Assembly: GCA_003281605.1 (NCBI GenBank)
Contig: QCBM01000005.1
Coordinates: 19,791-83,790, forward strand
Direction: 5' to 3'
Length of the DNA stretch: 64,000 nucleotides
From: Prochlorococcus sp. AG-347-I06
Lineage (GTDB): Bacteria > Cyanobacteriota > Cyanobacteriia > PCC-6307 > Cyanobiaceae
Part shown: in pieces, positions 14,304-57,639 of the stretch
How the letters are laid out: every line of letters starts with the position of its first letter
Position numbering within the stretch: position 1 is the stretch's first letter
Notes under the pieces: generated by a model
Database searches by the model: none
What the model was told of the DNA's origin: nothing
The model's input: only the letters and a program-made list of their open reading frames with translations
Program-made: the position numbers and the translations under genes

Positions 14304-14308
14304 TTTTT

Positions 14309-14358
14309 CGTTCACCTTCATTTGAGGGCGCAGTTCGAGTCATACCATGGAACGGGGG
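14309..14358 (+). ncRNA. Glutamine-II riboswitch (Downstream-peptide motif)
   Basis: CGTTC...GAACG outer stem, CCTTC-ATTT-GAGGG inner stem, GCGCAGTTCGAGTC...CCATGGAACGGGG pattern; sits upstream of a DUF4278-like gene. Confidence 0.85.
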
Positions 14359-14382
14359 ATGGCCGTGTTGTCACATCGAAAC

Positions 14383-40796: not shown

Positions 40797-40878
40797 GGGT
40801 CGGTGCCCGAGTGGTTAAAGGGGGCGGACTGTAAATCCGCTGGCTCTGCCTACGTTGGTTCAAATCCAACCCGGCCCA
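40797..40878 (+). tRNA. tRNA-Tyr(GTA)
   Basis: GGGTCGG/CCGGCCC acceptor stem, CTGTAAA anticodon loop, long variable arm, GGTTCAAATCC T arm. Confidence 0.98.
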
Positions 40879-40888
40879 CTTTAAAATT

Positions 40889-40960
<72 letters not shown>

Positions 40961-41088
40961 TGGCCAAAAGCATTGCTACAATAGAAGTTATAAGAAATTA
41001 GTTAAAATTGATTATTAGCCAGATATATCTAGATATGTCGACAATATAGCAATTCTGCACTAATATTTGCACTAATTACACTTTTAAA

Positions 41089-42438
41089 ATGACAAGTGCT
41101 AACAGCACTTCTTGGGAAAAAGAATTAAGAAAAAATATCTGCACTAATTTTGGTCGTGGAATTAGGGTTAATGGCGAAAATAGCGGTAGAACAAAACTTT
41201 TATATGTTTATAACGAAGGGCTAGGTTCTGCCAACAAAAGAACCTCTCAAACCTTACCCATCGAATGGAAGAAAACCTCAGGTATAGAAATCCTAAAAGC
41301 TATCGAATTTATAAAACCATTAATAGTTGAAAAAAACCTAACTCTTAAAGAAGCCACTAGAAGATGGAAAGCTCAATTCATTGGAGAAGCAACGAAACAA
41401 CCTAATAAAAGTTGGAATGATTTCTTATTAATAAGGCCTCTAAATAAAAATGATGCCAACTATGAAAAGGACTTAAAAGTTTATCTAAATACTGCATCAA
41501 AGGTTGATCAGTTCATGCAAACCAAACAAGGTTTAACAAGTAAAACTGAAAAAGATTGGGCTAGAAGAATTAGTAGATTCTTAGAAGAAATGAATAATAA
41601 TCCCTCTCCAAATACAGGAGTTGAACTTATAAAGAAATTATCGGATAAATACCTTATTGATATAGAACCTGATGAGAGGAAAAGATATATCAATGCTTGG
41701 TGTGAGATTTTAAAGTATGGAATCGAAAGACATTCACAGAACGAAAAAAGATGGCAACCGCCAAGCGAAGACTATAGAAAAGAACTAATTGGAAAATCTA
41801 ATAGGACTAAACAAGATAAATTAACTCCATATATAGAGGAGCATGATTTACTTAGATTATTAGATGATCTTGAATCAAGAGATTCTTCATTATTTCTAGC
41901 AGTTGGCTTAATTTCTATTTTTGGCTTAAGGCTTTCTGAACTTGCAGTTCTTAGAGCTGTAGATGGCAAACTATATGTTGGTAATATCAAAAATAATATA
42001 AACACAAAAGCAAAAAAGGAAGATAGAAGAGTTTTTCCTATGGATCTTTTGGCGAGGAAAAACCTCGGCCAAAACCTTATAGAACTATTCGAATCAAAAA
42101 AGATTACATTACCGATGCCAGTCTTAAATCAAATAGAAATGGTAAAAGATAAAAATAAATATGGTGATGTTGGTCAATCACTAAGGCAATTAATTGAAAG
42201 GAATAAGGTATGGAGAGAAATAATTAAAACTAACCCTGAAATAACACCTTATAGTTTGAGACATAGATATGCCCATCAATGTCATAAGGGTTCCACTATC
42301 CCAATATCAGTAAAAGATGCGGCGGCGGCAATGGGTCATTCTGTTGAAACTCATAATTCTTTTTATGGTTCTTACACAACGGAACTTAGCTTAGAAAAAG
42401 CATTTGAAAGACATTTAAAAAACAGGATTGAGGTTTAG
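41089..42438 (+). CDS. Tyrosine recombinase/integrase
   Basis: GLRLSEL (catalytic R), YSLRH, MGHS and HNSFY (catalytic Y). Confidence 0.92.
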   Translation: MTSANSTSWEKELRKNICTNFGRGIRVNGENSGRTKLLYVYNEGLGSANKRTSQTLPIEWKKTSGIEILKAIEFIKPLIVEKNLTLKEATRRWKAQFIGEATKQPNKSWNDFLLIRPLNKNDANYEKDLKVYLNTASKVDQFMQTKQGLTSKTEKDWARRISRFLEEMNNNPSPNTGVELIKKLSDKYLIDIEPDERKRYINAWCEILKYGIERHSQNEKRWQPPSEDYRKELIGKSNRTKQDKLTPYIEEHDLLRLLDDLESRDSSLFLAVGLISIFGLRLSELAVLRAVDGKLYVGNIKNNINTKAKKEDRRVFPMDLLARKNLGQNLIELFESKKITLPMPVLNQIEMVKDKNKYGDVGQSLRQLIERNKVWREIIKTNPEITPYSLRHRYAHQCHKGSTIPISVKDAAAAMGHSVETHNSFYGSYTTELSLEKAFERHLKNRIEV

Positions 42439-42775
42439 TTTTAACTGACGTAGGAAGGAATATATGTAGACATATCAATAAGCAGTATTAATATATATTT
42501 AACGCTTAGCGTTCTTCAAAAAAGTGGCTGAGAATTGACCAAATGGTTATGACAGCTTAAGAGCTTATGTTGGTAAAGAGTAGTTGATGTCAAATATCAT
42601 CACCCCAACAGGCAGCCACATAATTGCCAGCCCTAGTACCACCTACGACAAATTTTGGGGTCTTGAAGCATAGTTAAAAAATACTATCGGTTGCTCAGCC
42701 AAGGTACTACAGACTGAGAGACTTATTCATTATTGAGAACGAGTTTGAAGGTCGGGAAAAATATTTTTTAATCTT

Positions 42776-43024
42776 ATGAATAATCAAACTTGGCTGCCCA
42801 CAAGGGAAGCAAAAATAGTTCTAGGTTGTAGTGCCCAATTCCTAAAGAAAAATCGCGATATTTACGGTGGTTTTCTTAGAGAGGAAGACCATTATATTTT
42901 TGGCGCTAGTGTAAACTCTTCCATTCTTTGGAACGTAAAAGAAATTTTAAAAGAGTTTCACTATAGAGGACGGCTTATCAGGAAGGGTCAAGACTTAATA
43001 AGTGAATTACAAAAGGAGGTTTAA
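42776..43024 (+). CDS. Excisionase-like/HTH DNA-binding protein
   Basis: WLPTREAKIVLGCSAQFL winged-helix-like start; lies between integrase and helicase. Confidence 0.65.
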   Translation: MNNQTWLPTREAKIVLGCSAQFLKKNRDIYGGFLREEDHYIFGASVNSSILWNVKEILKEFHYRGRLIRKGQDLISELQKEV

Positions 43025-43026
43025 AA

Positions 43027-44121
43027 ATGAACCCCTCAGATTACACAGGTTGCGACATTGATAAAATACAGCTAATTGATAATGAAAATTATCAAAATCG
43101 TTATCACAATAAATCTTTAAAAGACTACTCCTCGGATGTAGGAAAAGGTCCTGAAAATATAGCTGATTTATTAAAAACAAAAAGTTCAAAAGAATGGATT
43201 GTCGATTCCTTTGGAGCTGGAGGTTCATGCGTTTTACTTGCGGGCGAAACAGGATCTGGTAAAACCTCATTTATTTATCAAATGGCTTATGCAATATCTA
43301 CGGGGAATATTTTTTTGGAAGAAATCACTACCCAAAAAAATAAAGTACTAGTTGTTCAATCAGATGAAAGTAAAAATAATGCTCTTGATAAGTTGGAGTT
43401 AATGGATATAGATGGACCAAACTCCAACCTTTATTTCTATTTCGCAGAAGATGGATGGGACAGACTAAATATTAAAAATCTGAAAGAGGTAGTTTTAAAT
43501 CATTCTTTTAAAGTTGTATTGCTTGATAGCGTTACAACATTATTAACCAATAATGGTCGTTCAATGCGAGATCCTGAATTTGCAACGCCTCTTTATGAAT
43601 TAAATAAATTAGCAAGTGAATTAAATATCCTTATTATTTGTACAGCGCATTTAAGAAAGCCAGAGGGAATTAGACATGAAGTATCTATACATGATGTAAT
43701 TGGAGCAATTACACAGAGTGGAGCTGTTAGCGATATTTGGGGTATTTGGGTACCAACAAAACAAAGCCATGAAAATCACTTTATTTTGAAATGCTTAGGG
43801 AAAAGAAACTGTAGAAAAGGAATTATTTGGAATTTAAAAGGCGATGAAGAAGATTTCAGTTTCACTTTAGAAAGTGTAGGAGAAGGAGAATTATTACCCT
43901 CCAAGAATCAAGAATTAAGTTTCTTGATTCTTGATTTCTTACATACAAAAAATGAATTTAAAACGATAAGAGAAATTGCTAATGCGACTTCGTTTAATCA
44001 GGAACATACTAGACGAATTTGTAAAAAACTTTTTCTAGAAAAAGAAATTTCTAGGGATAAAGATATCTCTAAAGGAGGAAGACCAGCCTGGAGGTACGGA
44101 CCTAAGACTTTTCCTACTTAA
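43027..44121 (+). CDS. RepA/DnaB-like AAA ATPase (replicative helicase-like) with C-terminal wHTH
   Basis: GETGSGKT Walker A, VLLDS Walker B, AHLRK; C-terminal TIREIANAT...RRICKKL...GGRP. Confidence 0.8.
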   Translation: MNPSDYTGCDIDKIQLIDNENYQNRYHNKSLKDYSSDVGKGPENIADLLKTKSSKEWIVDSFGAGGSCVLLAGETGSGKTSFIYQMAYAISTGNIFLEEITTQKNKVLVVQSDESKNNALDKLELMDIDGPNSNLYFYFAEDGWDRLNIKNLKEVVLNHSFKVVLLDSVTTLLTNNGRSMRDPEFATPLYELNKLASELNILIICTAHLRKPEGIRHEVSIHDVIGAITQSGAVSDIWGIWVPTKQSHENHFILKCLGKRNCRKGIIWNLKGDEEDFSFTLESVGEGELLPSKNQELSFLILDFLHTKNEFKTIREIANATSFNQEHTRRICKKLFLEKEISRDKDISKGGRPAWRYGPKTFPT

Positions 44122-44160: not shown

Positions 44161-44184
44161 AAGCCATTTGATATCAAATGGCTT
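44161..44184. terminator. Perfect 24-bp palindrome between convergent genes
   Basis: AAGCCATTTGAT|ATCAAATGGCTT; adjacent A run gives a T tail on the minus strand. Confidence 0.75.
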
Positions 44185-44215: not shown

Positions 44216-46117
44216 TTATAGAACCCTCCTCAATTCGTCTTCCCCACATTTTTCTATGAAACTTTTTAACTTAGCTGGTGGCCATCCAGTTTTAGCTGTC
44301 AAGATTTTGAATTTTTCTAATTCTTTAATCTCTATTCTTTGGCCATCATAAATATGATGGGTTTCTTTACCACTAGCTGAATGCGTTTCAGCAGATATTG
44401 AGATTGAATCTCTATCACCACCTTCAGAAGGAGGACGATTTCGATCTTCATGCTCAACTACAGATTCGAATTGTGCTTTCTCATCCATTAATGATTCAGC
44501 AAACAATTTGATGTTTACGCTCTCTGGAGATAAGTCTCCATTATCATCAGGGACCAAATCAATTCCATCTTCATACTGGTAGAAGTATGCTGTCTGCATA
44601 TCATGAGATAAGTCAGATTCAGTTCTTAGTATTCTTCCAAGTATTTGAGTCCATCTTAATGATGCCTGAATTGTGGTTAAATAAACTCCAACTCTAAGGA
44701 ACTTAATATCTACTCCTTCAGAAATTTTGCCTACGGCAATAATCCATTTAGGTCTATTCTTAGTTCTATTCGTCTTGAAGTTTTTAATAGCGCGTTTGTC
44801 GTCACCAGTTTCTGAATGAACAACAACAGCTTCTTCATTGGTCCACTTTTTTAAGGCCTTCGCAACTGCATCAGCATGGGGAATACTGTCACAAATAATT
44901 AATCCTCCAGCCCATTCATGCGATCTTCTACATTCATCTAATTGATCGTTTGCAGCGATCAAAATATTACGAACATATTCTGTACCATGTGGATGCCTTT
45001 CAGTACCGCATTCAATACAAGCCTTTCTTCTCAACCTTTTAATGATTTTTCTAAGCCTTCTATTGTCAACGATCCTCTCACCTGTAACTGAATCAAACTG
45101 ACATTCGTAAATTTGATCAATATTATCGGTAAGTTTGTGTTTAACTTTTTGTGCTGAAACAAGTTGGCCATCACGCTTTTCTTTAATAGTAAAATCAACA
45201 ACTCCGTTCCATTGTTTAATAACAACATCTCGGACAACTTGATCACCTAAAGCGCAATACCTCGTATTCCATTTCGTTATTCCATATCCATAGGAATATG
45301 CATGGGGTGGACTTAATTCAATTTGGTTCCTGTAATATCTCACCCAAGGTAATTTTTGACGATCACTTCTAAATGGAGTTCCACTTGTCATTAATCGAGC
45401 AACCGTATTACCAAAAGCTAAAGAGAAACATTCTCCCCATCTTTTTTGTTCACCTAAGTGATGACATTCATCAGCAATAATTAATGTCTTATACCTCTTA
45501 CAAACATCTCGTAAGATTTCAGCATTAACCATATTTCCAGAATCATTGTTCCGATAACCTATTTTTGCGTAAGTAGTAACGATACCGTCAAAACCTTCTG
45601 CGCAAGAATTTTTCTTATTAAGATGCAGACCAATTGTTCTAGCATCATCTTCCATTTGATCTCTTAAAAAATCACTTGGAACAGTAACAATAATTTTTTC
45701 TATAAAACCTTGCTCCTTTAAATATGCACCTATAAGTAGAGAGGCAAGAGTTTTTCCTGATCCTGGGAATGCGTGAAGAATAAAAGCATTTATATCTTCT
45801 TTTGGCTTGTTTATCTGCTGAACCATAGACATATAGCATCTTTGAAGAAATTCTTCTTGCCATTTCCTAAGTTCAAAGCCAGGGGGAAGCCAATTACTTA
45901 CATCTATTTTTAAAGATGCTGATTTTTTAAGATTGCATGATCGGCATAGAGCTTGACCATTACTTAATTCAGTTTTTCCTCCTAATGAATAAGGAGTTAT
46001 GTGATCAGCGTGAAAGTCATCGAGACTTATTTCACATGAGCAATTTTGGCATTTACCTTTTGCTCTTAAAAACAATTCTTGTCTTTGTGATTGAGTAAAG
46101 AATCTGTTGTCAGTCAT
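44216..46117 (-). CDS. HNH endonuclease fused to SF2 (ResIII/DExH-like) helicase
   Basis: CQNC...HADHITP...SNGQALCRSCN; AFPGSGKT, DECHH, SGTPFRSD, EGVDI and QILGRILR. Confidence 0.9.
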   Translation of the reverse strand: MTDNRFFTQSQRQELFLRAKGKCQNCSCEISLDDFHADHITPYSLGGKTELSNGQALCRSCNLKKSASLKIDVSNWLPPGFELRKWQEEFLQRCYMSMVQQINKPKEDINAFILHAFPGSGKTLASLLIGAYLKEQGFIEKIIVTVPSDFLRDQMEDDARTIGLHLNKKNSCAEGFDGIVTTYAKIGYRNNDSGNMVNAEILRDVCKRYKTLIIADECHHLGEQKRWGECFSLAFGNTVARLMTSGTPFRSDRQKLPWVRYYRNQIELSPPHAYSYGYGITKWNTRYCALGDQVVRDVVIKQWNGVVDFTIKEKRDGQLVSAQKVKHKLTDNIDQIYECQFDSVTGERIVDNRRLRKIIKRLRRKACIECGTERHPHGTEYVRNILIAANDQLDECRRSHEWAGGLIICDSIPHADAVAKALKKWTNEEAVVVHSETGDDKRAIKNFKTNRTKNRPKWIIAVGKISEGVDIKFLRVGVYLTTIQASLRWTQILGRILRTESDLSHDMQTAYFYQYEDGIDLVPDDNGDLSPESVNIKLFAESLMDEKAQFESVVEHEDRNRPPSEGGDRDSISISAETHSASGKETHHIYDGQRIEIKELEKFKILTAKTGWPPAKLKSFIEKCGEDELRRVL

Positions 46118-47063
46118 TTTTAAATACCTCCAAAATTTGGTTTGCTAATTGAATTGCGGAATTTTTTCCGATTCTTTTGATAATTTTTTTTGCGACTACT
46201 GATGCGTTACCTCTTACACCTACATAGCTGTAAGTTCCATACGCTTTAGCAAGTCCTGCTTCTCTTTCTGCTGCTGCTACCGAGGGAATTAAACCTCTTA
46301 AAAGTCTGTCCAAAGTATTAGATACTCTTTCAGTAGAGGTCCCTTTGCTTTTGCATAAAGAGGGGTTATTTTTTAATTTTGTTAACCTGCTTATCAAGCG
46401 AGTTTTACTATCACTTGGAAGTGAGTCTTTATCTTTTAAATAACTACTCGATGCTTCAAAGAGATTTGTTTGTACTGGGGCATCTCCTGCTGGTGATGTA
46501 TCTAAGGAATTTAATAATTCCTTTAAACGTTCATGTGCTTTAGACCATTCAGGATCAACTTGTTTCATTAAAGAGAGAAGTGTTTCCCATCCGATCATTT
46601 TGGATTTACCAAATCTAAAATCATCACTTAGCTGCTCCAAAGTATTAGGTTCTTCAGTAGCAATAAGTTCTATTAGATAAGTCACTGCCTCACTTGCATC
46701 TTTAGCTGAAGGTTGATGACCAGTTAAGGTTCTCATCAATTCATCAGGTTCAACGCCAAGACAATCTCTTATCCACTCAACAGCTCTTTTGTATTCCCTT
46801 ACTTCTCTCCTACTTTTGATAGAAGGCATAAAGGCAACTTTTTCCCAAGCTTTTTGCTTGAAACAATCAACTAAGGCAGTTGAAAGTGCTGCTGAATTTT
46901 TAGTAGTCCAGTGCTCTTTGAGTATTTGCGTACTCAGAGTTTTAATTTGTGTATCTCTTGGTAGAGAGGACAACCAGCTTTGAGCTTCAATGGTTGCAGT
47001 TTTTTCGTGTAATGTGTTCACTTTGTTCCTGGGGCTAGGTTTAGATGTAAGCCTTAAGCTCAC
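46110..47063 (-). CDS. Hypothetical protein, translationally coupled to the HNH-helicase
   Basis: 8-bp overlap with the helicase start; GTG at 47063 preceded by GGGAGAG (ORF track starts at TTG 47087). Confidence 0.8.
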   Translation of the reverse strand: MSLRLTSKPSPRNKVNTLHEKTATIEAQSWLSSLPRDTQIKTLSTQILKEHWTTKNSAALSTALVDCFKQKAWEKVAFMPSIKSRREVREYKRAVEWIRDCLGVEPDELMRTLTGHQPSAKDASEAVTYLIELIATEEPNTLEQLSDDFRFGKSKMIGWETLLSLMKQVDPEWSKAHERLKELLNSLDTSPAGDAPVQTNLFEASSSYLKDKDSLPSDSKTRLISRLTKLKNNPSLCKSKGTSTERVSNTLDRLLRGLIPSVAAAEREAGLAKAYGTYSYVGVRGNASVVAKKIIKRIGKNSAIQLANQILEVFKND

Positions 47064-47102
47064 AATCAAATACTCTCCCAAAAGCAACTAAAATATATTT
47101 TT

Positions 47103-47119
47103 TACGTGCGAAAAACCAA
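47103..47119 (-). promoter_or_regulatory. 17-bp motif copy A (TTGGTTTTTCGCACGTA on the minus strand)
   Basis: Exact reverse complement of 49318-49334; upstream of the leftward operon. Confidence 0.75.
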
Positions 47120-47189
47120 TTTTTATGCCAGGATTAGCTTATTAAAATTAAAAAATTTAATTATCAAGTAAATATTTTTTTATCTAAAA

Positions 47190-49316
47190 ATGAATGAGAG
47201 ACTAAGATGTCATATGTTTATTGGAATACCTGCAAGCGGGAAATCAACTCTTGCAAATGAACTGGCGCCATTGATAAATGCAGAGATTTTATCAACAGAC
47301 AAAATTAGAGAAGAACTTTATAAAGACGAAACGATTCAAGGAAATTGGAACGAAATTGAATCTTTACTTCATGAAAGACTTAAAGAATACATAAGACAAA
47401 ATAAGCCAGTTATCCTAGATGCTACTTTTGCAATGAGACCTTGGCGTCTAACAATTACTCAAAATCTTTTATTTGATAAAGAAATTGAATGGATTGGCTG
47501 GTGGTTTAAAACACCATTAGAAATTTGCCTTGAATGGAATCAATTAAGAGAGAGGAAAGTCGATGATCCAGTAATTAAAAGATTTGCGGCAGCCCTCTCA
47601 AATAAAATTTTCTCGCCAGATTTATCTGAAGGTTTTGCAACTTTAATAAATATTGATCCATCATCAACAGAAGATATTACAAAAGAAATTAAAAGCAGAC
47701 TTTCGAATTTAGATAGAAATATTACCCAAAGAAAAAATAAAGATTCAATAAAAGAATTGCACGGATACTCAAAATTATTAGATTTTGAGAGACTTCTATA
47801 TCTAATGCAACTGTTAATTAGATTTCCAGATTTAAGTGCGGATGATAAAAAAACAAAATTAGAAATGGAACAAATATGTAACCCAATACCTCAAGGATCT
47901 ATTGAAAACAAAGCCTCTAAATTTTTAAGTACTTTGCATGGCAGTTGTTATTCTGATATTGAAAAATTACATGATGATCTCAAGTGGCTTGATAAGCAGG
48001 GATTTATTAACCATAAAGAAGCAACAGGTAAGCTTGAGCCGCCTCCTGAAGACAAAAATTTTAATAGAGAACTTGGAGGGCTATCAAGATATTCAGAAAA
48101 AGATGCATTTATTAGAGTCATGTCTTTAATCAGATATATCTTACATAACCCTTTTGATGACAAAAGAATTAAAGATGAAAACAATAAGAAGGGTATTAGT
48201 TTGCACGAACACTATATTTCTAAATTAGAAAATATTTATTTCAAAGAGGAAAGAGATACTCTTAGAAAAGATATTGAAAAAATTCTAACTCCATACGGAT
48301 TTAGGGATAAAAATGATAATACAAGGCATGGTTATGTATTAGGAACTGCAGTTTTATCAAGGAACAGACTTGAAGATATTTTTCAGATTATTGATCAAGC
48401 AAAAAATAAATTAAATGATCCAACCATTTCAAGTGTGCACACTAAATTAAAAGAAAGGTTTAAGTGGGCTGGATTTAATTTAGACAATTATCCAGTCAGA
48501 TCATTTGCAAACAAATCTGTTATTAATCCAACTTTTACAAAAAAAGATTCCTTAGCAGTTGATACAAATACTGAAGAACTTGAAAATGCTATAAAGAATG
48601 GTTTTTTAATTGAAATTGAGTTTTTTAGAAGTGCAGGTAAATTTAACGAAGAAGAAAAAGAAGGTTCTCAAAACAAATTGGTTTGGCCAATCCAACTACT
48701 TTTTAATAATATTGGTTGGTATTTGGCCTATGAAGAAAAAACCTTTAGGGATGAACCTGGTCTTTTAAAAACTGAAAGAATTGATCGTATTGCTCTTAGG
48801 AGAATTGATAACTCAAAAATAAGAAATAGAAAAGATAGAGACAAAGCACTTAGAAAAGTTCAAAAATTGGTAGAAATTTCGGGGAGTATTTATTTTGGTG
48901 AAACTGTTGAAAAACAAATTGCAGTACTAAAAAGTAGTGAAGAAAATATTAAAAAATTACTTATTACAGTTCGCTTCAGAACAACTGAAAAAATATTTCG
49001 CTTTCTTCGAGAAGAACTTCAAAGATATCCCTTAAATCAAATGCGTTTAGCAAAGGGTTCAAAGAAAGTATTTTATGAAAATTGGGAAGAACCAGAAAGT
49101 GGGAACTTTGTACTAGAAATGATTAAAGATGATCCTTACCCATATCCAGTTGAGATAGATTTACCTTCATGGACAGTAAAAAATGATAACGATTTTAGAA
49201 GATGGCTATTAGGTTTTAGAGAGGGAATAATTATTGAAAGTCCTACAGAATTTGTAGAAGAGATTAAGTCAAACATATCAAAACTAGGAGAAATATACAA
49301 AACCAAAAATAATTAA
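47190..49316 (+). CDS. AAA_33/PNK-like P-loop kinase fused to HTH-WYL-WCX domains
   Basis: GIPASGKST, STDKIR and ILDAT; WPIQLLFNNIGWYLAY; FRRWLLGF...IESP. Confidence 0.85.
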   Translation: MNERLRCHMFIGIPASGKSTLANELAPLINAEILSTDKIREELYKDETIQGNWNEIESLLHERLKEYIRQNKPVILDATFAMRPWRLTITQNLLFDKEIEWIGWWFKTPLEICLEWNQLRERKVDDPVIKRFAAALSNKIFSPDLSEGFATLINIDPSSTEDITKEIKSRLSNLDRNITQRKNKDSIKELHGYSKLLDFERLLYLMQLLIRFPDLSADDKKTKLEMEQICNPIPQGSIENKASKFLSTLHGSCYSDIEKLHDDLKWLDKQGFINHKEATGKLEPPPEDKNFNRELGGLSRYSEKDAFIRVMSLIRYILHNPFDDKRIKDENNKKGISLHEHYISKLENIYFKEERDTLRKDIEKILTPYGFRDKNDNTRHGYVLGTAVLSRNRLEDIFQIIDQAKNKLNDPTISSVHTKLKERFKWAGFNLDNYPVRSFANKSVINPTFTKKDSLAVDTNTEELENAIKNGFLIEIEFFRSAGKFNEEEKEGSQNKLVWPIQLLFNNIGWYLAYEEKTFRDEPGLLKTERIDRIALRRIDNSKIRNRKDRDKALRKVQKLVEISGSIYFGETVEKQIAVLKSSEENIKKLLITVRFRTTEKIFRFLREELQRYPLNQMRLAKGSKKVFYENWEEPESGNFVLEMIKDDPYPYPVEIDLPSWTVKNDNDFRRWLLGFREGIIIESPTEFVEEIKSNISKLGEIYKTKNN

Positions 49317-49317
49317 T

Positions 49318-49334
49318 TTGGTTTTTCGCACGTA
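49318..49334 (+). promoter_or_regulatory. 17-bp motif copy B (TTGGTTTTTCGCACGTA)
   Basis: Runs into TAGAAT (49333-49338, -10-like) upstream of the rightward operon. Confidence 0.75.
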
Positions 49335-49371
49335 GAATATTTTTTTTTAATAAAATTTTGAGATTCTAAGG

Positions 49372-49866
49372 ATGTCTCACATTAATCCAATGACATCCAA
49401 CAACAAATTCAACAGCTCTGAAAATGATCACCCTGAAAATCAGGGAGACTTTCAAAGCAGCAATCCAAATGTTCCTAATTCTTATTTTGAATTACTTGCC
49501 ATGCAAGGCGGAGTTAATACAAAAACAAAGAACATTAACGAAATTCAGGATCTACCTGAATTAATTCCAGTTATAGAAAACTGTCTTAACTTAATTGCTC
49601 GTACTAAGGAGAAAAGTATTCGCAAACTAAATGAGAATATGCGACTTCTTGATGAGTTAAAAATTATCGAATCTAAGCGGTTTCAAAAAATGAGGCATAT
49701 TAATTCTCATTTAATTGATGAAGAAATTCATGAGCTTATGAAGGACCAACATTATCTTGATAAATTAATTCAACTACTTGATATGAGTGATTGCAATCTG
49801 CATCGATTCATACCCCAATTAATTGATATTGAAAAAGTACTTAAAAACCTAAACGCGGAGATTTAA
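49372..49866 (+). CDS. Hypothetical protein (orphan A); start may be ATG 49390
   Basis: Helical C-terminus; N-terminal motif shared with the next gene. Confidence 0.75.
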   Translation: MSHINPMTSNNKFNSSENDHPENQGDFQSSNPNVPNSYFELLAMQGGVNTKTKNINEIQDLPELIPVIENCLNLIARTKEKSIRKLNENMRLLDELKIIESKRFQKMRHINSHLIDEEIHELMKDQHYLDKLIQLLDMSDCNLHRFIPQLIDIEKVLKNLNAEI

Positions 49867-49870
49867 CCTA

Positions 49871-50329
49871 ATGACAAACAACAAAAACAATGATGAGATC
49901 AAAAGCACTCATCCCGAAGCCTTTGAAGATATAAAGGTTAGCGATTCTGTTCCTAATTCTTATAAAGAACTTTTAGAACTTCAAAAACCAAAGATTGAAT
50001 CTATTGATGATCTTGTAAGTGAAGGCAAAATTGATCCTGAAAAAGCTAAATTTTTAAAGCTATGTACAGAAACTTTTCAATCAGTTCTTGATCTTTTAAA
50101 TAAATTAAAATCTAGTCCTGGTCAAGATATCTTTATTGCAACTATGCTTATTCAAAGAGTTTACTTATTTAATAAAACTTACTTAGAAAAAGCGCAAAAA
50201 AATAAAGAGTTATCAGAACATGAGTTTAATAACTTATCGGAAAGTAATGCCAAATTAAAATGCATATTTCATATGCTCGTTCCGGGAGATGGAGAACTTG
50301 GCGAAAATGGACTCAATTTTACTGTTTAA
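49871..50329 (+). CDS. Hypothetical protein (orphan B)
   Basis: 4 nt after orphan A; shares HPE...VPNSYxELL. Confidence 0.75.
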   Translation: MTNNKNNDEIKSTHPEAFEDIKVSDSVPNSYKELLELQKPKIESIDDLVSEGKIDPEKAKFLKLCTETFQSVLDLLNKLKSSPGQDIFIATMLIQRVYLFNKTYLEKAQKNKELSEHEFNNLSESNAKLKCIFHMLVPGDGELGENGLNFTV

Positions 50330-50341
50330 GGAGGGAAGTAA

Positions 50342-51388
50342 ATGACGAACTCAAAATTAAACAATCCGGGTATTATTTATTTCGTGCAAGAAAAAGATCT
50401 TCTCGGATACAGCACTCCTAATTACGTAAAAATTGGCTTAGTTAAAAGCAATGAGATTGGGCGATCAGGAGAGGATAGAAAGGATGAACACCAAACAGGA
50501 AATCCTAGACCTCTCTACATAGCCCACTCAATTACAACTAAAGCAAGTGTTTCAAAATTAGAAAGTTTAATACACCAAAAACTTTCGCTTCACAGGCACA
50601 GAGGTGAGTGGTTTGTAAAACCAAATGGAGAAATAGATCCCTTCATTAAAGAATCAAATCTTATAAATGAACAACTTCAAGATCAATTAAAAAATGATCT
50701 TAAAATTGAAGAACTAAATTCTCAAGTTAGTTCAGGTAAAACCACAAAACCCTCTTCTGAAGCTCAAGACATTCACAATGAATTGCTTAGAGTTATTAAA
50801 GAAAAAAAAGAAATCGAAACTCAAAAGAAAATTATTGAACTAAAGCTAAGACTATTATCTGGTAGTTCAAATAATTCTATTGAGGGAGTATTTCAATGGA
50901 TTTTAAAAAGAGAATCACAAAGATTTGATGCCAAGAATTTTGAAAAAGAAAATCCTGAATTATTTGAAAAATATGCAAAAGAATCTCAAAGCTCAATCTT
51001 TAGAATCCAAAAAATAAATTCCAATATCAATAAAGAATTAATAGAAGAATTAAATAGTAAAGTTAGCCATTTAGATGCCTCTGAAAAGAGCACAAAAATT
51101 GCAAGAAGCAATGAAGCAGAGGATCTTCACAGAGAGTGGCTTACTTTGCTTTCACAACAACAACCTCTTGAACTTAAGAAAGAAAATCTTGTAAATCAAC
51201 TTAAAATATTATGTGATAATAATTCAGGCCTTGAGAATATATGCTCTTGGAAAAGAGAACCAATTAAAAAAATTAAGAAAAGTGATCTATCAGAATTAGA
51301 TAAAGATATAGTTAATAAATATCTTGTAAAGGTAAAATCAACTTCCTCCTTTATGTTAAATACCTTTAGAGCATATAAATTTAAGTAA
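50342..51388 (+). CDS. GIY-YIG superfamily (T5orf172/MUG113-like) nuclease with coiled-coil tail
   Basis: IIYFVQE...VKIG...QTGNP...LESLIHQKL...RGEWF; SD GAGGGAAG. Confidence 0.85.
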   Translation: MTNSKLNNPGIIYFVQEKDLLGYSTPNYVKIGLVKSNEIGRSGEDRKDEHQTGNPRPLYIAHSITTKASVSKLESLIHQKLSLHRHRGEWFVKPNGEIDPFIKESNLINEQLQDQLKNDLKIEELNSQVSSGKTTKPSSEAQDIHNELLRVIKEKKEIETQKKIIELKLRLLSGSSNNSIEGVFQWILKRESQRFDAKNFEKENPELFEKYAKESQSSIFRIQKINSNINKELIEELNSKVSHLDASEKSTKIARSNEAEDLHREWLTLLSQQQPLELKKENLVNQLKILCDNNSGLENICSWKREPIKKIKKSDLSELDKDIVNKYLVKVKSTSSFMLNTFRAYKFK

Positions 51389-51401
51389 GGAGTATATTCT
51401 A

Positions 51402-54380
51402 ATGGCAAAGGAAAATTTTCCATATCAACTTTTCATTGTTGGAGCAGAATATTCCAGAAATGATATTAATCAAAGACTTGTCAATTCAAAAGTAAGTCAG
51501 CAGAGTGGAGTTTCAAGTTTTGCGGATTCATTAATTCTTTTTGCAACATTAGAAAAAGAAGGAAGACCTGAAGAAATACAGTATAAAGATTTTTTTAAAT
51601 TTAAAAACAAAATATTTAGTGAATTAAAGAAAAAAAAAGGAACTTCTGTTTTACCTGTAGAAGGCTATTTCCCAATATTTGAAAAGGGAGAAATTAAATT
51701 TTTCTGGGAAAGTCAAAATCCTTCAGGAAACTTTGGAACCCCAGAAAAACCATTGCTTTCCAAATTAATTAAAGGAGAGCTTAAAGGTTATTTATTTGCT
51801 CGAATTGAGGAGAAAACAAAAGGTAAAAGTAATCGATTTTTATACTGTGGTTCGATAGAAGCAGAAAGTTATGACGACAAAGCAAATGGAGAAAGACCTT
51901 TTGGAGTTAAATTTTCTTGTAATGATATAGGGCCAAAGCATGTAAAAAATGATTTAAAGATTTTACTGGAATGGCGTCCAAAAGATATTTCGACAATTAC
52001 TAAAGCAGAAGAACTTGCTTCTTCTTGTTTGGCAAATGAAAAAGTAAAACTTAAGGAAATAGAGAATGAGCTTTTTTGGAGTGGTTTTGAAACTCCAGAA
52101 TTGGCAACAAAGATATTACTAGAAAAATTTAATAAATACTCACTAGAACCTTCACCATATATATTTACGAAACTTGTCTGTAGACACTTTTCTGGTATCA
52201 ATAAATCCTCTTTTTTTACGCCACAAGTCTTAGAAAATTTTATTTGCAACTTTCTAAAAAATTTAAAAATAAAATCTGTTCTTGATCCATCAATGATAAA
52301 TGGAAGTACTTTATATAAAATTTCAAAAGAATTAAAACCTCAAGAGATTTATGGGTATGAAATAAATAAAGACCTCTTTAGACTATCTGAAGTTTTTAAT
52401 AAAAATGCCACGCTTAAAAATGAATATTTCCCAATTAATCAAGACTTAGAAAAAAGATTTGATTTAATAGTTTCTTTTCCTCCGATGATGATGAGGCATC
52501 CCTCAGTAAATAAAGAGATAATAATAAATGATAAAAAACTTGCATTTAATCTTCACAGAGAGACTGAAATCATATTTTCTTCTTTAAGAAATTTATCTGA
52601 TAATGGTTTAGCATTATTTATTGTTTCTCCAGGCTTTTTATTAAAAACTAGAAGTAGAAATATTTTTGAATTTATAAAAGATATTGGATTCAGTTTAGAA
52701 GGAATTTTTTATATCCCTGCTGGGACTTTCAAACCTTTTTCTGGAATTGAAGGCAGATTGGTAATAATTAAGAAAAAAATTCAATCTAAATTTATATTTG
52801 AAGGACAATTATCTTTTAATAAAGACAGAGATCAAAAATTAATAAATAATTTTTATGAATCTAAAGCTGATGAAGATCCTGAATTAGGTTTTTTAAGAGA
52901 ATTTGAAAGTAAAACTGATTTAAGAGAAGCTATCTTCCTTGAAAAGTTATCGCTAATTAATAAAAATATTGATATTGAGGTTAAACATTTAGAAGAAATA
53001 TCTGAAAGTATTTTCTATGCGACTTTAGAGAAAATAATAGAACATCAAAATTCTATATTTATTTTTCTCAATGGAAATAATAATGTATATGAATATGTAG
53101 CTGACATTGATACCAAAAAATTTGATTCTGGAATTAGGAATCAATCTATAGCGCAAGTAGTTATAAACCCTAAAAGAATTAATAAAAAAGTTTTAGTAAA
53201 AATCCTACAAAGTAAAAGAGGTAAACTTGCTTTTCAAGCTTTAACATCTTCTTTTGCTTCTCCTGGAAGAACAAGAATTTCTTTAAGTTCAATAGGTAAA
53301 TTACTTTTATGTATACCTGATAAAAAAGAGCAAGATCAATTAGAAATAATCGATCAAAAATTATTCGATATTAAATTTAAATTAAGTAACTTCGAAAATA
53401 ATCTTTGGGAAAAAATAGATCAACCCAAAGAATCTATTAAAGAATTTAATAAGATTATTAATCAAAAATATCAAAAGGAAACTAAAGATGATTTAGATAT
53501 AAGAATACTTCCCTTTCCATTGGCAAGTATTCTTCAAACAGTAAAAAGTTTTAATGGTATTCCTATAAAAATGTCATTACATATTGAATATTTCTTTGAG
53601 GCTCTTAGTCAATTTTTGGCAATTTATATAATGAGTGGTTTTTATATTAACGAAGAAGAATTTAATTCAATATGGACAGAAGTCTCAAATTTTCTAAAAG
53701 AAAAAAATCATAATATTGGCTCAAGTACTTTTGGTACCTGGAATATAATTTTTAACCTACTAACGAAAAAAATAAACCAAGATATAAAGGAGGAAGAAAG
53801 TATGAAAGAAGTTTGGCTCAGTAGATTAGCAATAGAAAGCGAAGAATTTTTAAATGTATTAACCGGTAAAAAATTACTTGGGATTTTAATGAGGGCAAAC
53901 AGATTTAGAAATATGTGGAGAGGACATTCAGGAGCAATTGGAGATGATAATGCAAAAGAGAGATACAACACATATAACGAAATGGTAAAAGAAGTTTTAA
54001 ACTTATTTAGAAATTTTTGGATTGAGTCGCCTCTTGTGATTCCTGGAGAAAGTACATATAAAGACGGAAAGTTTGATTATTTTTGCCAATCTGCAATGGG
54101 AGTTACAATGCCCTTACCAAGAAATAAATACAGTTTAAAACAACCTCTTGAAGATGGAATGATGCATATAGTTTCTACTGTAAGTGGGAAATCATGTAAA
54201 TTACTCCCATTAATTAAATTTGGAGAAAGCCCAAGCAAAGTTGATAATGCATGTTATTTCTATAACAGGCGTGATAATGACCAATCACAAAGATGGATTT
54301 CTTATCACAATGAAAATAAACCTGAGAGACCATTTAGTGATCCTGAAGTAAATGCATTACTAGATAAATTAAGTAACTAA
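51402..54380 (+). CDS. DUF3427-like + degenerate N6-adenine methyltransferase + TRD-like + HEPN-like fusion
   Basis: YSRNDI...FFWESQ...FLYCG; FFTP, VLDPSMINGS, YGYEIN, DLIVSFPPM; LLLCIPDKKEQ; RNMWRGH. Confidence 0.7.
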   Translation: MAKENFPYQLFIVGAEYSRNDINQRLVNSKVSQQSGVSSFADSLILFATLEKEGRPEEIQYKDFFKFKNKIFSELKKKKGTSVLPVEGYFPIFEKGEIKFFWESQNPSGNFGTPEKPLLSKLIKGELKGYLFARIEEKTKGKSNRFLYCGSIEAESYDDKANGERPFGVKFSCNDIGPKHVKNDLKILLEWRPKDISTITKAEELASSCLANEKVKLKEIENELFWSGFETPELATKILLEKFNKYSLEPSPYIFTKLVCRHFSGINKSSFFTPQVLENFICNFLKNLKIKSVLDPSMINGSTLYKISKELKPQEIYGYEINKDLFRLSEVFNKNATLKNEYFPINQDLEKRFDLIVSFPPMMMRHPSVNKEIIINDKKLAFNLHRETEIIFSSLRNLSDNGLALFIVSPGFLLKTRSRNIFEFIKDIGFSLEGIFYIPAGTFKPFSGIEGRLVIIKKKIQSKFIFEGQLSFNKDRDQKLINNFYESKADEDPELGFLREFESKTDLREAIFLEKLSLINKNIDIEVKHLEEISESIFYATLEKIIEHQNSIFIFLNGNNNVYEYVADIDTKKFDSGIRNQSIAQVVINPKRINKKVLVKILQSKRGKLAFQALTSSFASPGRTRISLSSIGKLLLCIPDKKEQDQLEIIDQKLFDIKFKLSNFENNLWEKIDQPKESIKEFNKIINQKYQKETKDDLDIRILPFPLASILQTVKSFNGIPIKMSLHIEYFFEALSQFLAIYIMSGFYINEEEFNSIWTEVSNFLKEKNHNIGSSTFGTWNIIFNLLTKKINQDIKEEESMKEVWLSRLAIESEEFLNVLTGKKLLGILMRANRFRNMWRGHSGAIGDDNAKERYNTYNEMVKEVLNLFRNFWIESPLVIPGESTYKDGKFDYFCQSAMGVTMPLPRNKYSLKQPLEDGMMHIVSTVSGKSCKLLPLIKFGESPSKVDNACYFYNRRDNDQSQRWISYHNENKPERPFSDPEVNALLDKLSN

Positions 54381-54422
54381 ATCTAGTGATACAAATTTAC
54401 TTCTTGCTGAACATTATTTTCT
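54329..54422 (+). repeat. 94-bp direct repeat, copy 1 (hairpin 54345-54403)
   Basis: 87/94 identical to 57546-57639 by manual alignment. Confidence 0.95.
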
Positions 54423-54432
54423 TTAATGCTAT

Positions 54433-57390
54433 CTACAGTGATGAATTTATATTTAGGATTAGAAGTCTCCTGGCAAGTGAATGATTTGTATAGTATTTAT
54501 AAACATCAGCATTCAATTTTATTTTATTAGAAAACCTAAAATAATTTGGTAATTTCCCTTTTGTACTTTCATTCCTACTAGCATAAAAGTCATATGCAGA
54601 ACTTGTTATGCTGTAAGTCTTATTATCATTATCTTCAAAAATAGCTGATTTTTTATCCAATCCTGCATAATTTTTAAATTTTAAAATTACATTTTTCCTC
54701 TCATACCATCTTGTATTTAATATTTCTAGTTTATTGTAGTTGGATATTTGTTTAAGCTCTTTAAGCAAAAAGATAATATCTTCAAAAAATTCTTTAGTTG
54801 TTGTCACTTTAATAAGCTGTTCATTCAGCTTTGAACCACTATATTTTTTTTGTTGATAATAATAACTTTCATTATATGCCTGTGAAAAATAATTTTTATT
54901 AAGCAGGAGAACCATTTTACAAAAATCTTCTTTGAAAAATAGATTAACTGTTTTACTTAAAGATTTTCTTGTAAACGCATTAACAGAAGAAATTAACCAC
55001 CACATAAGACTATTTCTGTTTGATGAGTAATAAGGTGAATTTCCATCAATATCTAGATGTTCATAACATTTCAAAAGTAGATCACTAATATTGTCAAAAT
55101 ATTCTTGGTTAATGTTTTCACCTACCATTTCATTCATAAGGTGCCGTGCATGTCGGTTATATGCATCTGCTATAAGTGTCAAAAACAAAGATTTACTTGT
55201 ATCTTTTCTTTCTGACCAATCTTCAGTGACTTTATAGACATCCTCAAATTTATTTTGCCTGATCAATAGTCTTGCAAATGCAGTCATAAATTTAGAGTAT
55301 GGTAATGAGTCAGGAAGAGGGGTATCTAGCGAATCAAAAAATCTGAATCCATATTCACAAGCTCTACTATCTTTAAGTGCATCAAATCTATAAAAAAGCG
55401 TTAATAAAGCATTAGGATCATTTCCATCAGCTGCAAGCTGTAAGTGCTTTATACATTGAAGTTGATCATTAAATTCTTGATAAATCAAACCTATAAGACG
55501 ATAAACAGCAGGTGGGACTGATTGAGCTCTATTTATATCTTTAAAATCCTCAAGATCTTTCAATGCATCTCTTAGTTTTGCAAATGCAACTTCTTTTAAA
55601 TCGTTAGAAACAAGGTCTTCATCTTTAATTTTATAAAAATGTCCTAATGCACCAATTGCCTCATTACAAATCACCCTACAAGTATCATCAACCTGTGTTT
55701 CAGGTCTTAGAAAGCTGAATTTCATCTGATTTGACCAACTATTATTTTCAGAATTTAGTATCGAAATATTCTTATTAATTTGATCATCCTTATAAATATT
55801 CAACCTAAATCTAAGATCTTCATTTAAAGGATATATGCTTAAATAAGATCTAAAGTTATCATTCAATTTTATACAATCCATAGAAGATGTACCCCTGAAG
55901 GCCAATCCCAAGTCCTCAATTTCTGCAATGGATTCAGTAACACTGTCAATATCAACTGAAAGTCTCTTATTAATATCTATTTTTCTAGATTCTCCTAAAA
56001 CAAAAAGTACCTCAAGACAGTCTTTACTTACATTAGATAATGAACCTACAAGTTTTGTAAATGAGAATGAAATAATACTATCTGCACCACATTGAACTGA
56101 TTCAATTAAGCTTGTATTATTTTTCTTTTGGTATCCAATTGCATTTTTTATTGCAAGTGGGTTACAAAATAATTTATTAGAGTAGTCTGAAGCTTCTTCG
56201 TATGAAATTTTTTTTCCTAATTTATCTAAATAAACTTTTTGGAATAATTTTGCAGCACTTTTAAGTTCTAAAGGTCCTAGTGAAATAATACTGCTAGATT
56301 CTCTAATTCTTATTCTTGAAGTTATTATAATTTTCCAATCTCTTGGTAACTCATTTTCAAATTCAGAAAACACCTTATAAATATCACTGGACAGTGTCTC
56401 AAGATTATCTACCCATAATAAAAATCTGTAGTTTCCAAAGGTATTTAAGAAGTCTTCCCAAAGTGAATTAATATCTTTTCCATCTTCAAAGTTAAATACT
56501 TCTTGAAAAATATTATTTTCGCTAAATTCTGTATTAGCGAATTTATAACCTTGCAATAATTGCTCTTTAATTCCCTCCATTGTTAAATTAATAATATCTT
56601 TTCTGACTACACCCTCCTCTAAATATTCCTCTTTCAGTGATGAGTATAAAATACAATCAATTTCTTTAGAATCTTCATCAGAAAACTTTAATTCATTTAA
56701 AACAGACAATGTTAAAGCTGTTTTACCTGTTCCTCCAGCACCAAAAATACTTACACTTGGTTTTCTTGGATTTAATAAATAATTTTTTATTTCCTCTGAA
56801 AGTTTTTCTCTCCCGATAATTTCATCGTAATCAGGCATTGGTAAATTATTCGGAATTTCAGTTAATTTACTCTCTTCTATTTCAACTAGATCAAGGTTCC
56901 CTTTTTTTGCTGCATAATATCTTTCAATTACATTTATAAAACCCAGTTGTTTAATTACAGGATCAAGTGCTAAAGCTTGTACTCTTAGCCAATGAACTGG
57001 GTGATATTCATTCCCAGGGTGAGCGAAAGATTGAGATCTTGTTTTATAAATTTGTAAAACATTTATCAATTGATCTAACCTTTCATAGTATTTTTGTTTC
57101 GAACTTCCCTGTGAAACTTGTTTCGCTAAAGATGGCAATTGAGAAAGATTTGATTTTCTGATTAACTCTTCTTTATTTCTTGGGTTCCTTCTATATGTTT
57201 CTGAGAAATATCTTTTACATTTTAGGCCTGCTCCAGATTCAGTATCAACCGAATCTATATTAGAAATTATTTTATCTACCAAACTTTTCTCTAGAGAACC
57301 TAGAACCATTTGTATTCTAGTTGCATCTAGGAATTGATCATCTTGATCAAACGAGTAGATCTCTTCATTTTCTACTGCGCTTAAAGTCAC
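54433..57390 (-). CDS. NLR-like STAND protein: HEPN-like N-terminus, NB-ARC NTPase, helical C-terminus
   Basis: RSQSFAH (Rx5H); PNNLP...IIGRE; GAGGTGKT; LWVDNLET; IITSR; CNPLAI; TPR-like helices. Confidence 0.8.
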   Translation of the reverse strand: MTLSAVENEEIYSFDQDDQFLDATRIQMVLGSLEKSLVDKIISNIDSVDTESGAGLKCKRYFSETYRRNPRNKEELIRKSNLSQLPSLAKQVSQGSSKQKYYERLDQLINVLQIYKTRSQSFAHPGNEYHPVHWLRVQALALDPVIKQLGFINVIERYYAAKKGNLDLVEIEESKLTEIPNNLPMPDYDEIIGREKLSEEIKNYLLNPRKPSVSIFGAGGTGKTALTLSVLNELKFSDEDSKEIDCILYSSLKEEYLEEGVVRKDIINLTMEGIKEQLLQGYKFANTEFSENNIFQEVFNFEDGKDINSLWEDFLNTFGNYRFLLWVDNLETLSSDIYKVFSEFENELPRDWKIIITSRIRIRESSSIISLGPLELKSAAKLFQKVYLDKLGKKISYEEASDYSNKLFCNPLAIKNAIGYQKKNNTSLIESVQCGADSIISFSFTKLVGSLSNVSKDCLEVLFVLGESRKIDINKRLSVDIDSVTESIAEIEDLGLAFRGTSSMDCIKLNDNFRSYLSIYPLNEDLRFRLNIYKDDQINKNISILNSENNSWSNQMKFSFLRPETQVDDTCRVICNEAIGALGHFYKIKDEDLVSNDLKEVAFAKLRDALKDLEDFKDINRAQSVPPAVYRLIGLIYQEFNDQLQCIKHLQLAADGNDPNALLTLFYRFDALKDSRACEYGFRFFDSLDTPLPDSLPYSKFMTAFARLLIRQNKFEDVYKVTEDWSERKDTSKSLFLTLIADAYNRHARHLMNEMVGENINQEYFDNISDLLLKCYEHLDIDGNSPYYSSNRNSLMWWLISSVNAFTRKSLSKTVNLFFKEDFCKMVLLLNKNYFSQAYNESYYYQQKKYSGSKLNEQLIKVTTTKEFFEDIIFLLKELKQISNYNKLEILNTRWYERKNVILKFKNYAGLDKKSAIFEDNDNKTYSITSSAYDFYASRNESTKGKLPNYFRFSNKIKLNADVYKYYTNHSLARRLLILNINSSL

Positions 57391-57545
57391 AAAATTCTAA
57401 ACATTTTTTTTATGATAATCACTTTTTTTTTCAGTATCAAAAATTGTTATTTTCTAAAAATATTTATTTAGATATTAGATCAAAGACTTTAAATCATCTC
57501 TTGAAAAATAATCTTTTATTTTCTACAGCAAAACTAACCGACGAT

Positions 57546-57639
57546 ACCATTTAGGGGTCCTGAAGTAAATGCATTACTAGATAAATTGAGTAACTAAATC
57601 TAGTAATACAAATTTACTTCTTGCTGCATATTATTTCCT
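57546..57639 (+). repeat. 94-bp direct repeat, copy 2 (hairpin 57562-57620)
   Basis: 3217 bp downstream of copy 1; non-coding here. Confidence 0.95.

Follow-up and report, generated by a model that had tools for sequence, protein, structure and literature searches.

A polynucleotide kinase-WYL fusion protein and an oriented promoter-proximal motif form a candidate switch for two nuclease operons in picocyanobacteria

A 64,000-nt stretch of Prochlorococcus sp. AG-347-I06 (contig QCBM01000005.1, positions 19,791 to 83,790; the window, guanine-plus-cytosine (GC) content ~31%) encodes a 708-amino acid fusion of a polynucleotide kinase-like domain to a winged helix-turn-helix (wHTH)-WYL-WCX module, and two copies of a 17-nt motif flank the gene. 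The kinase-WYL protein most likely activates both flanking operons from this oriented, promoter-proximal motif upon a nucleic-acid signal, a reading that we hold with more confidence than doubt. The pairing of the motif with the regulator is very likely a dedicated transcriptional switch, and the switch probably serves defense against phage or nucleic-acid damage. In the proposed mechanism, both 17-mers, each a core TTGGTYTTTCGCAYG with an A-rich tail, would be oriented candidate sites bound by the protein encoded between them. This protein would be a one-component regulator that joins the kinase-like domain to a PafBC/DriD/BrxR-type wHTH-WYL-WCX module, and it would recruit RNA polymerase to the promoters of two operons that lack a -35 element. 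The left target would be p303 and the HNH-helicase gene, and the right target p164, p152, the GIY-YIG gene, and a methyltransferase gene. The trigger may be a nucleic-acid signal sensed by the WYL and/or the kinase domain, such as single-stranded or 5'-OH-ended DNA or RNA from phage infection or damage. An earlier note on this DNA had proposed one WYL-type regulator and a shared cis-element heading two nuclease/accessory operons; comparative genomics strongly supports that core, but the description of the regulator as a plain WYL gene, a HEPN assignment, and the choice of -10 hexamers did not stand.

The 17-mer TTGGTTTTTCGCACGTA is present as two exact copies in the window, at 47103-47119 on the minus strand and 49318-49334 on the plus strand, and no third site was found in the 64 kb with three mismatches allowed. 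The chance expectation is 0.12, and none of 100 dinucleotide shuffles contained two matches. A position weight matrix scan of the whole window scored both sites at 26.2 compared to 14.7 for the next best. As the earlier note had it, the copies bracket the open reading frame (ORF) at 47190-49316 and have the same orientation relative to the operon that each precedes, pointing toward the genes downstream. The conserved part of the 17-mer is the 15-nt core TTGGTYTTTCGCAYG, located at 47105-47119 in the left copy and 49318-49332 in the right copy. A longer inverted repeat spans 33 nt at 85% identity (47090-47122 and 49315-49347). The left copy sits in the divergent region between ORF 46110-47087 on the minus strand and ORF 47190-49316 on the plus strand, 70 nt upstream of the kinase-WYL ATG, and faces the p303/HNH-helicase operon. 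The same position holds an identical or one-mismatch site in related loci L001, L002, L003, L161, L203, L208, L209, and L330-333. The right copy faces p164; it begins 2 nt past the kinase-WYL stop codon, 37 nt ahead of the p164 ATG, and is an island of identity within a diverged junction in the seven loci compared. A weak hairpin at the right copy (AAAACCAAA/TTTGGTTTT) was dropped as a terminator because it is not conserved in L001.

Relatives of the kinase-WYL gene were confirmed at 245 places in one-genome-per-species contigs, and 80 of these were taken in along with further metagenome loci. Full-length relatives are encoded in Prochlorococcus, marine Synechococcus, and freshwater Cyanobium, Vulcanococcus, and Synechococcus. 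The core has the variant form TTGCTCTTTCGCAGG in high-GC genomes. The earlier note had called for a motif search in homologous loci, and the motif is there: TTGGTYTTTCGCAYG/TTGCTCTTTCGCAGG with at most one mismatch gave 66 matches in 937 kb (89 relative-encoding loci) compared to 0.75 in shuffles. A weight matrix gave 122 hits over the same loci compared to 2.8 in shuffles, but it was built from those loci, so the pattern count is the cleaner statistic. Of 73 loci, 56 have a site in the 300 nt before the regulator gene, whereas none of 365 control windows inside the gene has one. The hits are nearly always at operon heads in a fixed orientation, and the motif is kept from 31% GC Prochlorococcus to ~65% GC Cyanobium/Vulcanococcus, with proteins that are only 40-50% identical. 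The genes downstream of the motif are the regulator (30 instances), F1 (39), the p303 family (7), the p164 family (6), and F13 or its leader ORF (6).

Gene order varies around the motif. Loci L205-207 are arranged as an HNH-helicase and a 317-amino acid protein on one side, diverging from 249- and 146-amino acid proteins and the kinase-WYL protein on the other. The one divergent intergenic region contains both copies, placed back to back, and there is none 3' of the kinase-WYL gene. An abundant marine variant (L330-333) has the GIY-YIG gene behind the helicase and keeps both motif positions. High-GC genomes have a divergent pair of motifs before the regulator gene and additional copies at the head of a convergent operon that encodes families F13/F12. 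Judged from these arrangements, the motif follows promoters and not gene ends. A third copy, TTGGTTTTTCGCATT, was observed in L330 (1867-1881, minus strand) at the head of a 123-amino acid MUG113/GIY-YIG gene ~5 kb from the regulator, so the regulon can reach beyond the two flanking operons. A 14-mer (GTTTTTCGCACGTA) scan of metagenome contigs and a 15-mer scan of viral contigs gave, among the matches listed, single hits at an estimated chance level; only L161 was a real locus, and these scans were not used as evidence. As far as sampled, the family appears confined to picocyanobacteria. Loci L005, L010, L018, L021, L031, L035, L041, L051, L052, L059, L071, and L074 bear GTDB titles that name unrelated organisms (Chitinophaga pinensis, Bradyrhizobium ivorense, Bifidobacterium breve, Bordetella parapertussis, and others). 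These titles look mislabeled, and the metagenome-assembled genome contigs carry picocyanobacterial loci.

The kinase-WYL protein (47190-49316, plus strand) divides approximately into a Pnkp-like P-loop kinase (residues 1-175), an extra helical, wHTH-like domain (190-290), a wHTH (300-395), a WYL domain (456-565), and a WCX domain (566-708). Residues 1-175 match Pfam AAA_33 (2e-19), NCBIfam bacter_Pnkp (5e-8), and a PHROG polynucleotide kinase family (8e-12). Foldseek aligns the kinase domain with Clostridium thermocellum Pnkp (4gp6; E 2.6e-8, TM 0.74). The segments GIPASGKST, STD37KIR40, and ILD77AT align with GSSGSGKST, SSDFCR, and VVDAT of CthPnkp, and the P-loop, Asp37, Arg40, and Asp77 are invariant among 24 sequences of the family. 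By sequence, the amino-terminal domain is a P-loop kinase of the polynucleotide-kinase clade with intact catalytic residues, and kinase activity is predicted. Pfam, family-model, and Foldseek searches found no phosphatase or ligase domain in the 708-amino acid protein.

The remainder of the protein resembles WYL transcription factors. When residues 180-708 were modeled alone, the top Foldseek matches were all of this class: PafBC-RNA polymerase (9fnd, 4e-6), DriD (9cu3, 2e-4), PafBC (6sj9), CapW (7tb6), and BrxR (7qfz). The alignments span 260-390 columns and cover whole chains of PafBC, DriD, CapW, and BrxR. The PADLOC WYL model matches residues 453-698 (4.3e-15), and the structure model has a beta-barrel at residues 472-544. 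Pfam WYL is weak and is found in 13 of 24 family members. Pfam WCX matches 21 of 24 (best 1.1e-5), and the window protein scores E 0.008, under the curated cut-off. No Pfam HTH model matched the window protein or the family members scanned. The recognition-helix/wing segment of the wHTH, TLRKDIEKILTPYGFR..NDNxRHGY, is the most conserved part of the family, and the additional helical domain at ~190-290 is located amino terminal to this canonical wHTH. These models indicate that the protein carries a complete wHTH-WYL-WCX module; the gene is not the plain WYL gene of the earlier note but encodes a 708-amino acid kinase fusion. A 426-amino acid relative without the kinase, encoded at 5983-7263 of L202 (IMG/VR contig 3300022752_006144, classed viral), aligns to residues 307-692, so the carboxy terminal module can exist alone. 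A sequence search of the PDB with the kinase-WYL protein returned nothing useful. Database names for the relatives are only "AAA family ATPase," "predicted kinase," and "WYL domain-containing protein," and no description of the family was found in literature on WYL with Prochlorococcus, Synechococcus, or polynucleotide kinase.

The motif has a fixed relationship to a downstream hexamer. Downstream of the core, the 97 high-GC instances show an A-rich tetrad and then the hexamer nAnGCT at +31 to +36. Position +32 is A in 76% of these instances and position +36 is T in 71%, and A at +43 is also frequent. The A-N3-T combination (+32/+36, within one base) is present in 83-93% compared to a background of 2.3%. 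The window has hexamers in the same register. GAGAGT (47072-47077, minus strand) is 27 nt after the left core and gives a predicted transcription start at ~47063-47066. GAGATT (49360-49365, plus strand) is 27 nt after the right core and places the predicted start at or near the A of the p164 ATG (49372), so the p164 mRNA is predicted to be leaderless. Among the 30 promoters of the regulator gene itself, 93% have TTG at +5 to +11, corresponding to a -35 element with a 17-nt spacer. In 23 of these 30, the distance from the core to the ATG is 40-42 nt, so the regulator mRNAs would be leaderless. In contrast, TTG is at the -35 position in 6% of the target promoters (n = 67). No canonical sigma-70 promoter was detected at either window site.

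In this geometry, the site is predicted to lie at about -40 to -57 from the start and ~27-30 nt upstream of the -10-like hexamer. The hexamers that abut the motif, TAAAAA and TAGAAT, had been taken as -10-like sequences. They are present, but they fall at about -40 to -35 in the predicted geometry and probably belong to the candidate binding site; the better conserved GAGAGT and GAGATT lie 27 nt further on. An abutting -10 is unsupported in the high-GC loci, which have A at +1 and C at +6. A sigma-54-type arrangement of GG/GC elements was rejected on its spacing, and to our knowledge cyanobacteria lack sigma-54. TTGGTT as a -35 element with a 16-18-nt spacer was also rejected since it has no consistent -10.

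Eight marine metatranscriptomes contain contigs that span 44351-47064 and 49380-50668. These data show that both operons are transcribed in the sea. No contig in these metatranscriptomes crosses either motif from the operon side: the longest left-operon contig ends at 47064, and the right-operon RNA contigs start at 49380 or later. The right copy falls near the 3' end of the kinase-WYL transcript, and one RNA contig (X1, 48907-49340) runs across it, as expected if the motif worked at the RNA level as a leader or 3' untranslated region element. This explanation is scarcely credible since the operon transcripts stop short of the motif, the motif has no conserved pairing partner, and it keeps a set distance from the -10 and -35 elements. 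A separate stem-loop, GUGAGC-UUAAG-GCUUAC (47047-47063, minus strand), is located at the predicted 5' end of the p303 mRNA. The form UGAGC-N5-GCUCA is kept in L205, L208, and L331, with seven predicted pairs, one of them changed on both sides. An analogous inverted repeat, GCGCTG...CAGCGC, is found in high-GC F1 leaders. The p303-leader stem-loop could stabilize the mRNA or act as a second regulatory site.

The promoter geometry favors activation over BrxR/CapW-type repression, as we infer from a fixed, oriented site placed just upstream of an absent -35 element, as in PafBC and DriD. The same protein and site could instead operate as a BrxR- or CapW-like repressor that silences both operons, and in most lineages also the regulator gene, until it is released by a ligand. 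The best-studied WYL regulators of defense islands do repress, the BrxR (7qfz) and CapW (7tb6) folds also match the protein, the partial dyad in the site is perfect in some loci, and most lineages carry the site before the regulator's own gene, as negative autoregulation predicts. Repression is nevertheless rather unlikely. The site is upstream of the -35 position and does not cover the -35, the -10, or the start. A -35 is present in the regulator's own promoter but absent from the targets, and orientation and spacing to the -10 are fixed, which is typical of activator-dependent promoters. Both operons are also readily seen in the metatranscriptomes.

Several observations weigh against an activator acting from this motif. 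The motif is asymmetric and has only a partial dyad, TTTCG-N2-CGAAA, and most WYL regulators are symmetric dimers. The p303 operon is abundant in marine metatranscriptomes, which does not suggest tight silencing of the targets in situ. In metatranscriptome X4, the p303 operon has a depth of 100-550 and kinase-WYL transcripts of this allele are almost absent, a comparison that is confounded by allelic divergence of the regulator gene. At the freshwater locus L032, one metatranscriptome contig extends 18 nt beyond the predicted start of the left operon; this fits a more proximal start or DNA carry-over, and the freshwater metatranscriptome is too fragmented for mapping starts. The gene set of the window matches no defined anti-phage system in PADLOC, which returned generic helicase, HNH, MTase, and WYL models only. 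Finally, F1, the divergent neighbor in freshwater loci, could itself be a DNA binder. It is a ~310-amino acid protein with a weak LysR-type HTH (HTH_1, E 0.018), and the gene after it is often an SNF2 helicase gene, with a NOV_C nuclease-like domain in the member scanned.

The F1 match raises the idea that the motif is read by another factor (p303, F1, a global regulator, or an alternative sigma factor) and that the kinase-WYL gene is only co-inherited. Every motif-bearing locus does have a ~300-amino acid protein and a helicase-nuclease pair. However, profile comparison detected no homology between p303 and F1 (hhalign probability 0.1%), p164 and F13, or p152 and F12. The neighbors are therefore analogous and not orthologous, the same motif accompanies unrelated ~300-amino acid proteins, and the kinase-WYL protein is the sole common denominator of the motif-bearing loci. 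A global regulator is also at odds with the lack of further sites in the window outside the locus. Overall, a different reader of the motif is unlikely.

Alternatively, the inverted repeats could be recombination sites that delimit an invertible or exchangeable cassette containing the WYL gene. DNA identity to L003 is 96-100% for both target operons, 62-88% for the regulator gene, and 56-87% for the methyltransferase gene. In four marine metagenomes, the depth across the regulator gene is 2-4 times lower than across the flanks, and at 47119/47134 and 49338-49359 the contigs split into sequences corresponding to other alleles. There is a tyrosine recombinase gene at a distance of 5 kb. These features resemble cassette ends, but no inverted form was found in at least 12 assemblies, which have one orientation throughout, and no opposite-strand joints were found in the four metagenomes. 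The L205-207 copies are together upstream of an operon with none 3' of the gene, and the high-GC copies are divergent pairs upstream of the gene. The P0002 allele is a mosaic, 70-78% identical over residues 1-395 and 98-100% over the remainder, and this mosaic inside the gene points to ordinary homologous exchange. An invertible or mobile segment, which the earlier note had offered as its alternative, is rejected, and repeats that serve as recombination sites are highly improbable. The sequence comparisons indicate instead that several regulator alleles coexist between near-identical targets, with exchange anchored on conserved sequence; such exchange makes the repeats look like cassette ends without inversion or transposition.

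The proposed activator shares features with known WYL proteins and differs from each of them. PafBC, a mycobacterial WYL activator that acts by "sigma adaptation," is the best structural match of the carboxy terminal module (9fnd). It uses an oriented, asymmetric site at a fixed distance from the -10 in promoters without a -35 (PMC8635444). Both have two HTH-type domains per functional unit, and PafBC responds to single-stranded DNA. Unlike the single gene with one WYL-WCX unit found here, PafB/PafC is a heterodimer with two WYL-WCX units and no kinase. Its element is at -26 compared to about -40 to -57 here, although in both cases the targets have a -10 and no -35. The PafBC motif (tGTCgg-N10-tAnnnT) is unrelated, and PafBC is actinobacterial and controls a chromosome-wide DNA-damage regulon. 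DriD, a Caulobacter WYL activator, is the third-ranked Foldseek hit (9cu3_B, E 2e-4) and has the highest target-normalized TM-score (0.59). It is activated by single-stranded DNA. Its site is positionally conserved beside or over a missing -35 at a constant distance from the -10 (PMC13004042). In contrast to the window protein, DriD is a ~330-amino acid homodimer with a palindromic box and no kinase, and it controls DNA-damage genes and not an adjacent island. BrxR and CapW, the WYL regulators of BREX, CBASS, and other islands, have the wHTH-WYL-WCX fold (7qfz, 7t8k, 7tb6), are encoded beside the mobile defense genes that they regulate, and are usually autoregulated. They are, however, ~290-amino acid repressors without an enzymatic domain whose operators overlap the promoter. 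The window protein has 708 amino acids with a 300-residue amino terminal kinase plus extra domain, its candidate site is upstream of the inferred core promoter, and its putative targets belong to no named system.

The amino terminal domain has the conserved P-loop, Asp, and Arg of the bacterial Pnkp/T4 Pnk 5'-kinase clade, but it is not joined to a phosphatase or a ligase/adenylyltransferase domain as in Pnkp. RtcR, in which a sensor domain is fused to the activator of an RNA-repair operon, is an analogous case of nucleic-acid-end sensing joined to a transcription factor, but it relies on a CARF domain and sigma-54. A fuller account is possible, and we offer it tentatively. The protein may represent a new sensor-activator class in which an active kinase and the WYL domain read broken or 5'-OH ends generated by phage attack. 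PafBC/DriD-like recruitment of RNA polymerase from about -50 would then turn on an unrecognized defense system of p303, the helicase-nuclease, two small coiled-coil proteins, and a swappable GIY-YIG/methyltransferase component.

WYL regulators beside defense genes are already known. The sequence comparisons would add a kinase fusion, a taxonomic restriction, and a deeply conserved promoter grammar within WYL-regulated defense/damage regulons. The predicted-active kinase domain suggests a direct link from nucleic-acid end chemistry to transcription. The hosts are picocyanobacteria, which outnumber all other phototrophs and whose antiviral defenses are poorly known, and the family is common in ocean metagenomes. 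A cis-element kept across a two-fold GC range gives a precise promoter model and a means to enumerate the regulon, including orphan protein families. At the population level, the regulator gene behaves as a polymorphic cassette flanked by near-invariant targets, as expected of a sensor under phage-driven selection. If the protein is indeed a sensor-activator, the motif would be a search key ("guilt by operator") for new defense genes in Prochlorococcus, Synechococcus, and Cyanobium.

The left operon begins with p303 (46110-47021, minus strand; GTG start at 47021, with the mechanical ORF extending to 47087). Its homologs have 303-305 amino acids and no Pfam hit, form an orphan family seen only in marine picocyanobacteria, and always accompany the HNH-helicase; a single p303 variant is represented in 46 indexed blocks of the metagenome collection. 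The second gene (44216-46117, minus strand) encodes a 633-amino acid fusion of an HNH endonuclease to an SF2 (ResIII/Helicase_C) helicase (Pfam HNH 9e-12, ResIII 1e-13; PHROG DNA helicase 2e-34). A bidirectional terminator-like hairpin at 44161-44184 closes the operon.

The right operon begins with the genes for two small helical proteins, p164 (49372-49866) and p152 (49871-50329), both on the plus strand and adjoining in six loci. Neither has a family match in Pfam, NCBIfam, PADLOC, or PHROGs, and the PADLOC matches of p303, p164, and p152 are none or marginal. A 348-amino acid GIY-YIG (T5orf172/MUG113) nuclease-like protein follows (50342-51388, plus strand; Pfam MUG113 2e-6, T5orf172 2e-5). 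Pfam thus agrees with the HNH-helicase and GIY-YIG assignments made previously for the two sides. The last gene (51402-54380, plus strand) had been read as a HEPN-like fusion, but it encodes a 992-amino acid N6-adenine methyltransferase with a specificity-like region (Pfam N6_Mtase 1e-8; PADLOC MTase_I, MTase_II, and Specificity_I). Pfam, NCBIfam, PADLOC, and PHROGs gave no HEPN match; no separate search for the Rx4-6H motif was made.

The methyltransferase slot is hypervariable. L003 (10204-13194) has a 68% allele, and Prochlorococcus sp. AG-355-P18 (L002, 10271-12295), the closest genome match of the window with 97% DNA identity across the cassette, has an unrelated (25%) methyltransferase-like gene on the opposite strand. 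The GIY-YIG and STAND genes beside the slot remain 88-98% identical. A direct repeat of ~90-125 nt (54298-54422 and 57515-57639; 84% overall and near-identical across ~90 nt) consists of the final ~50 nt of the methyltransferase gene and the sequence downstream. It brackets the convergent gene for a 985-amino acid STAND/NB-ARC-like NTPase (54433-57390, minus strand) and looks like the scar or anchor of a cassette insertion or exchange.

The gene cluster comes after tRNA-Tyr/tRNA-Thr (40797-40961; tRNA-Thr alone 40888-40961), the tyrosine recombinase gene (41089-42438), and an AAA_25 primase/helicase-like gene (43027-44121). Tycheposons are defined by a tRNA-adjacent, inward-facing tyrosine recombinase and one or more replication genes (10.1101/2020.12.28.424599). 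The order of tRNA-Thr, recombinase, and AAA_25 gene resembles the layout of a tycheposon-like genomic island. AG-355-P18 is without 40987-44039, and the tyrosine recombinase, an 82-amino acid ORF, and most of the AAA_25 gene are gone. Its tRNA-Thr region is fused straight to 44040 with a 7-nt overlap, leaving a carboxy terminal AAA_25 remnant. The segment 40987-44039 reads as a tycheposon-like integration/replication module gained or lost beside tRNA-Tyr/tRNA-Thr. Elsewhere in the window, a Glutamine-II riboswitch aptamer, a feature that helped assign the window to marine picocyanobacteria, is located at 14306-14363 on the plus strand (63.7 bits, gathering score 33).

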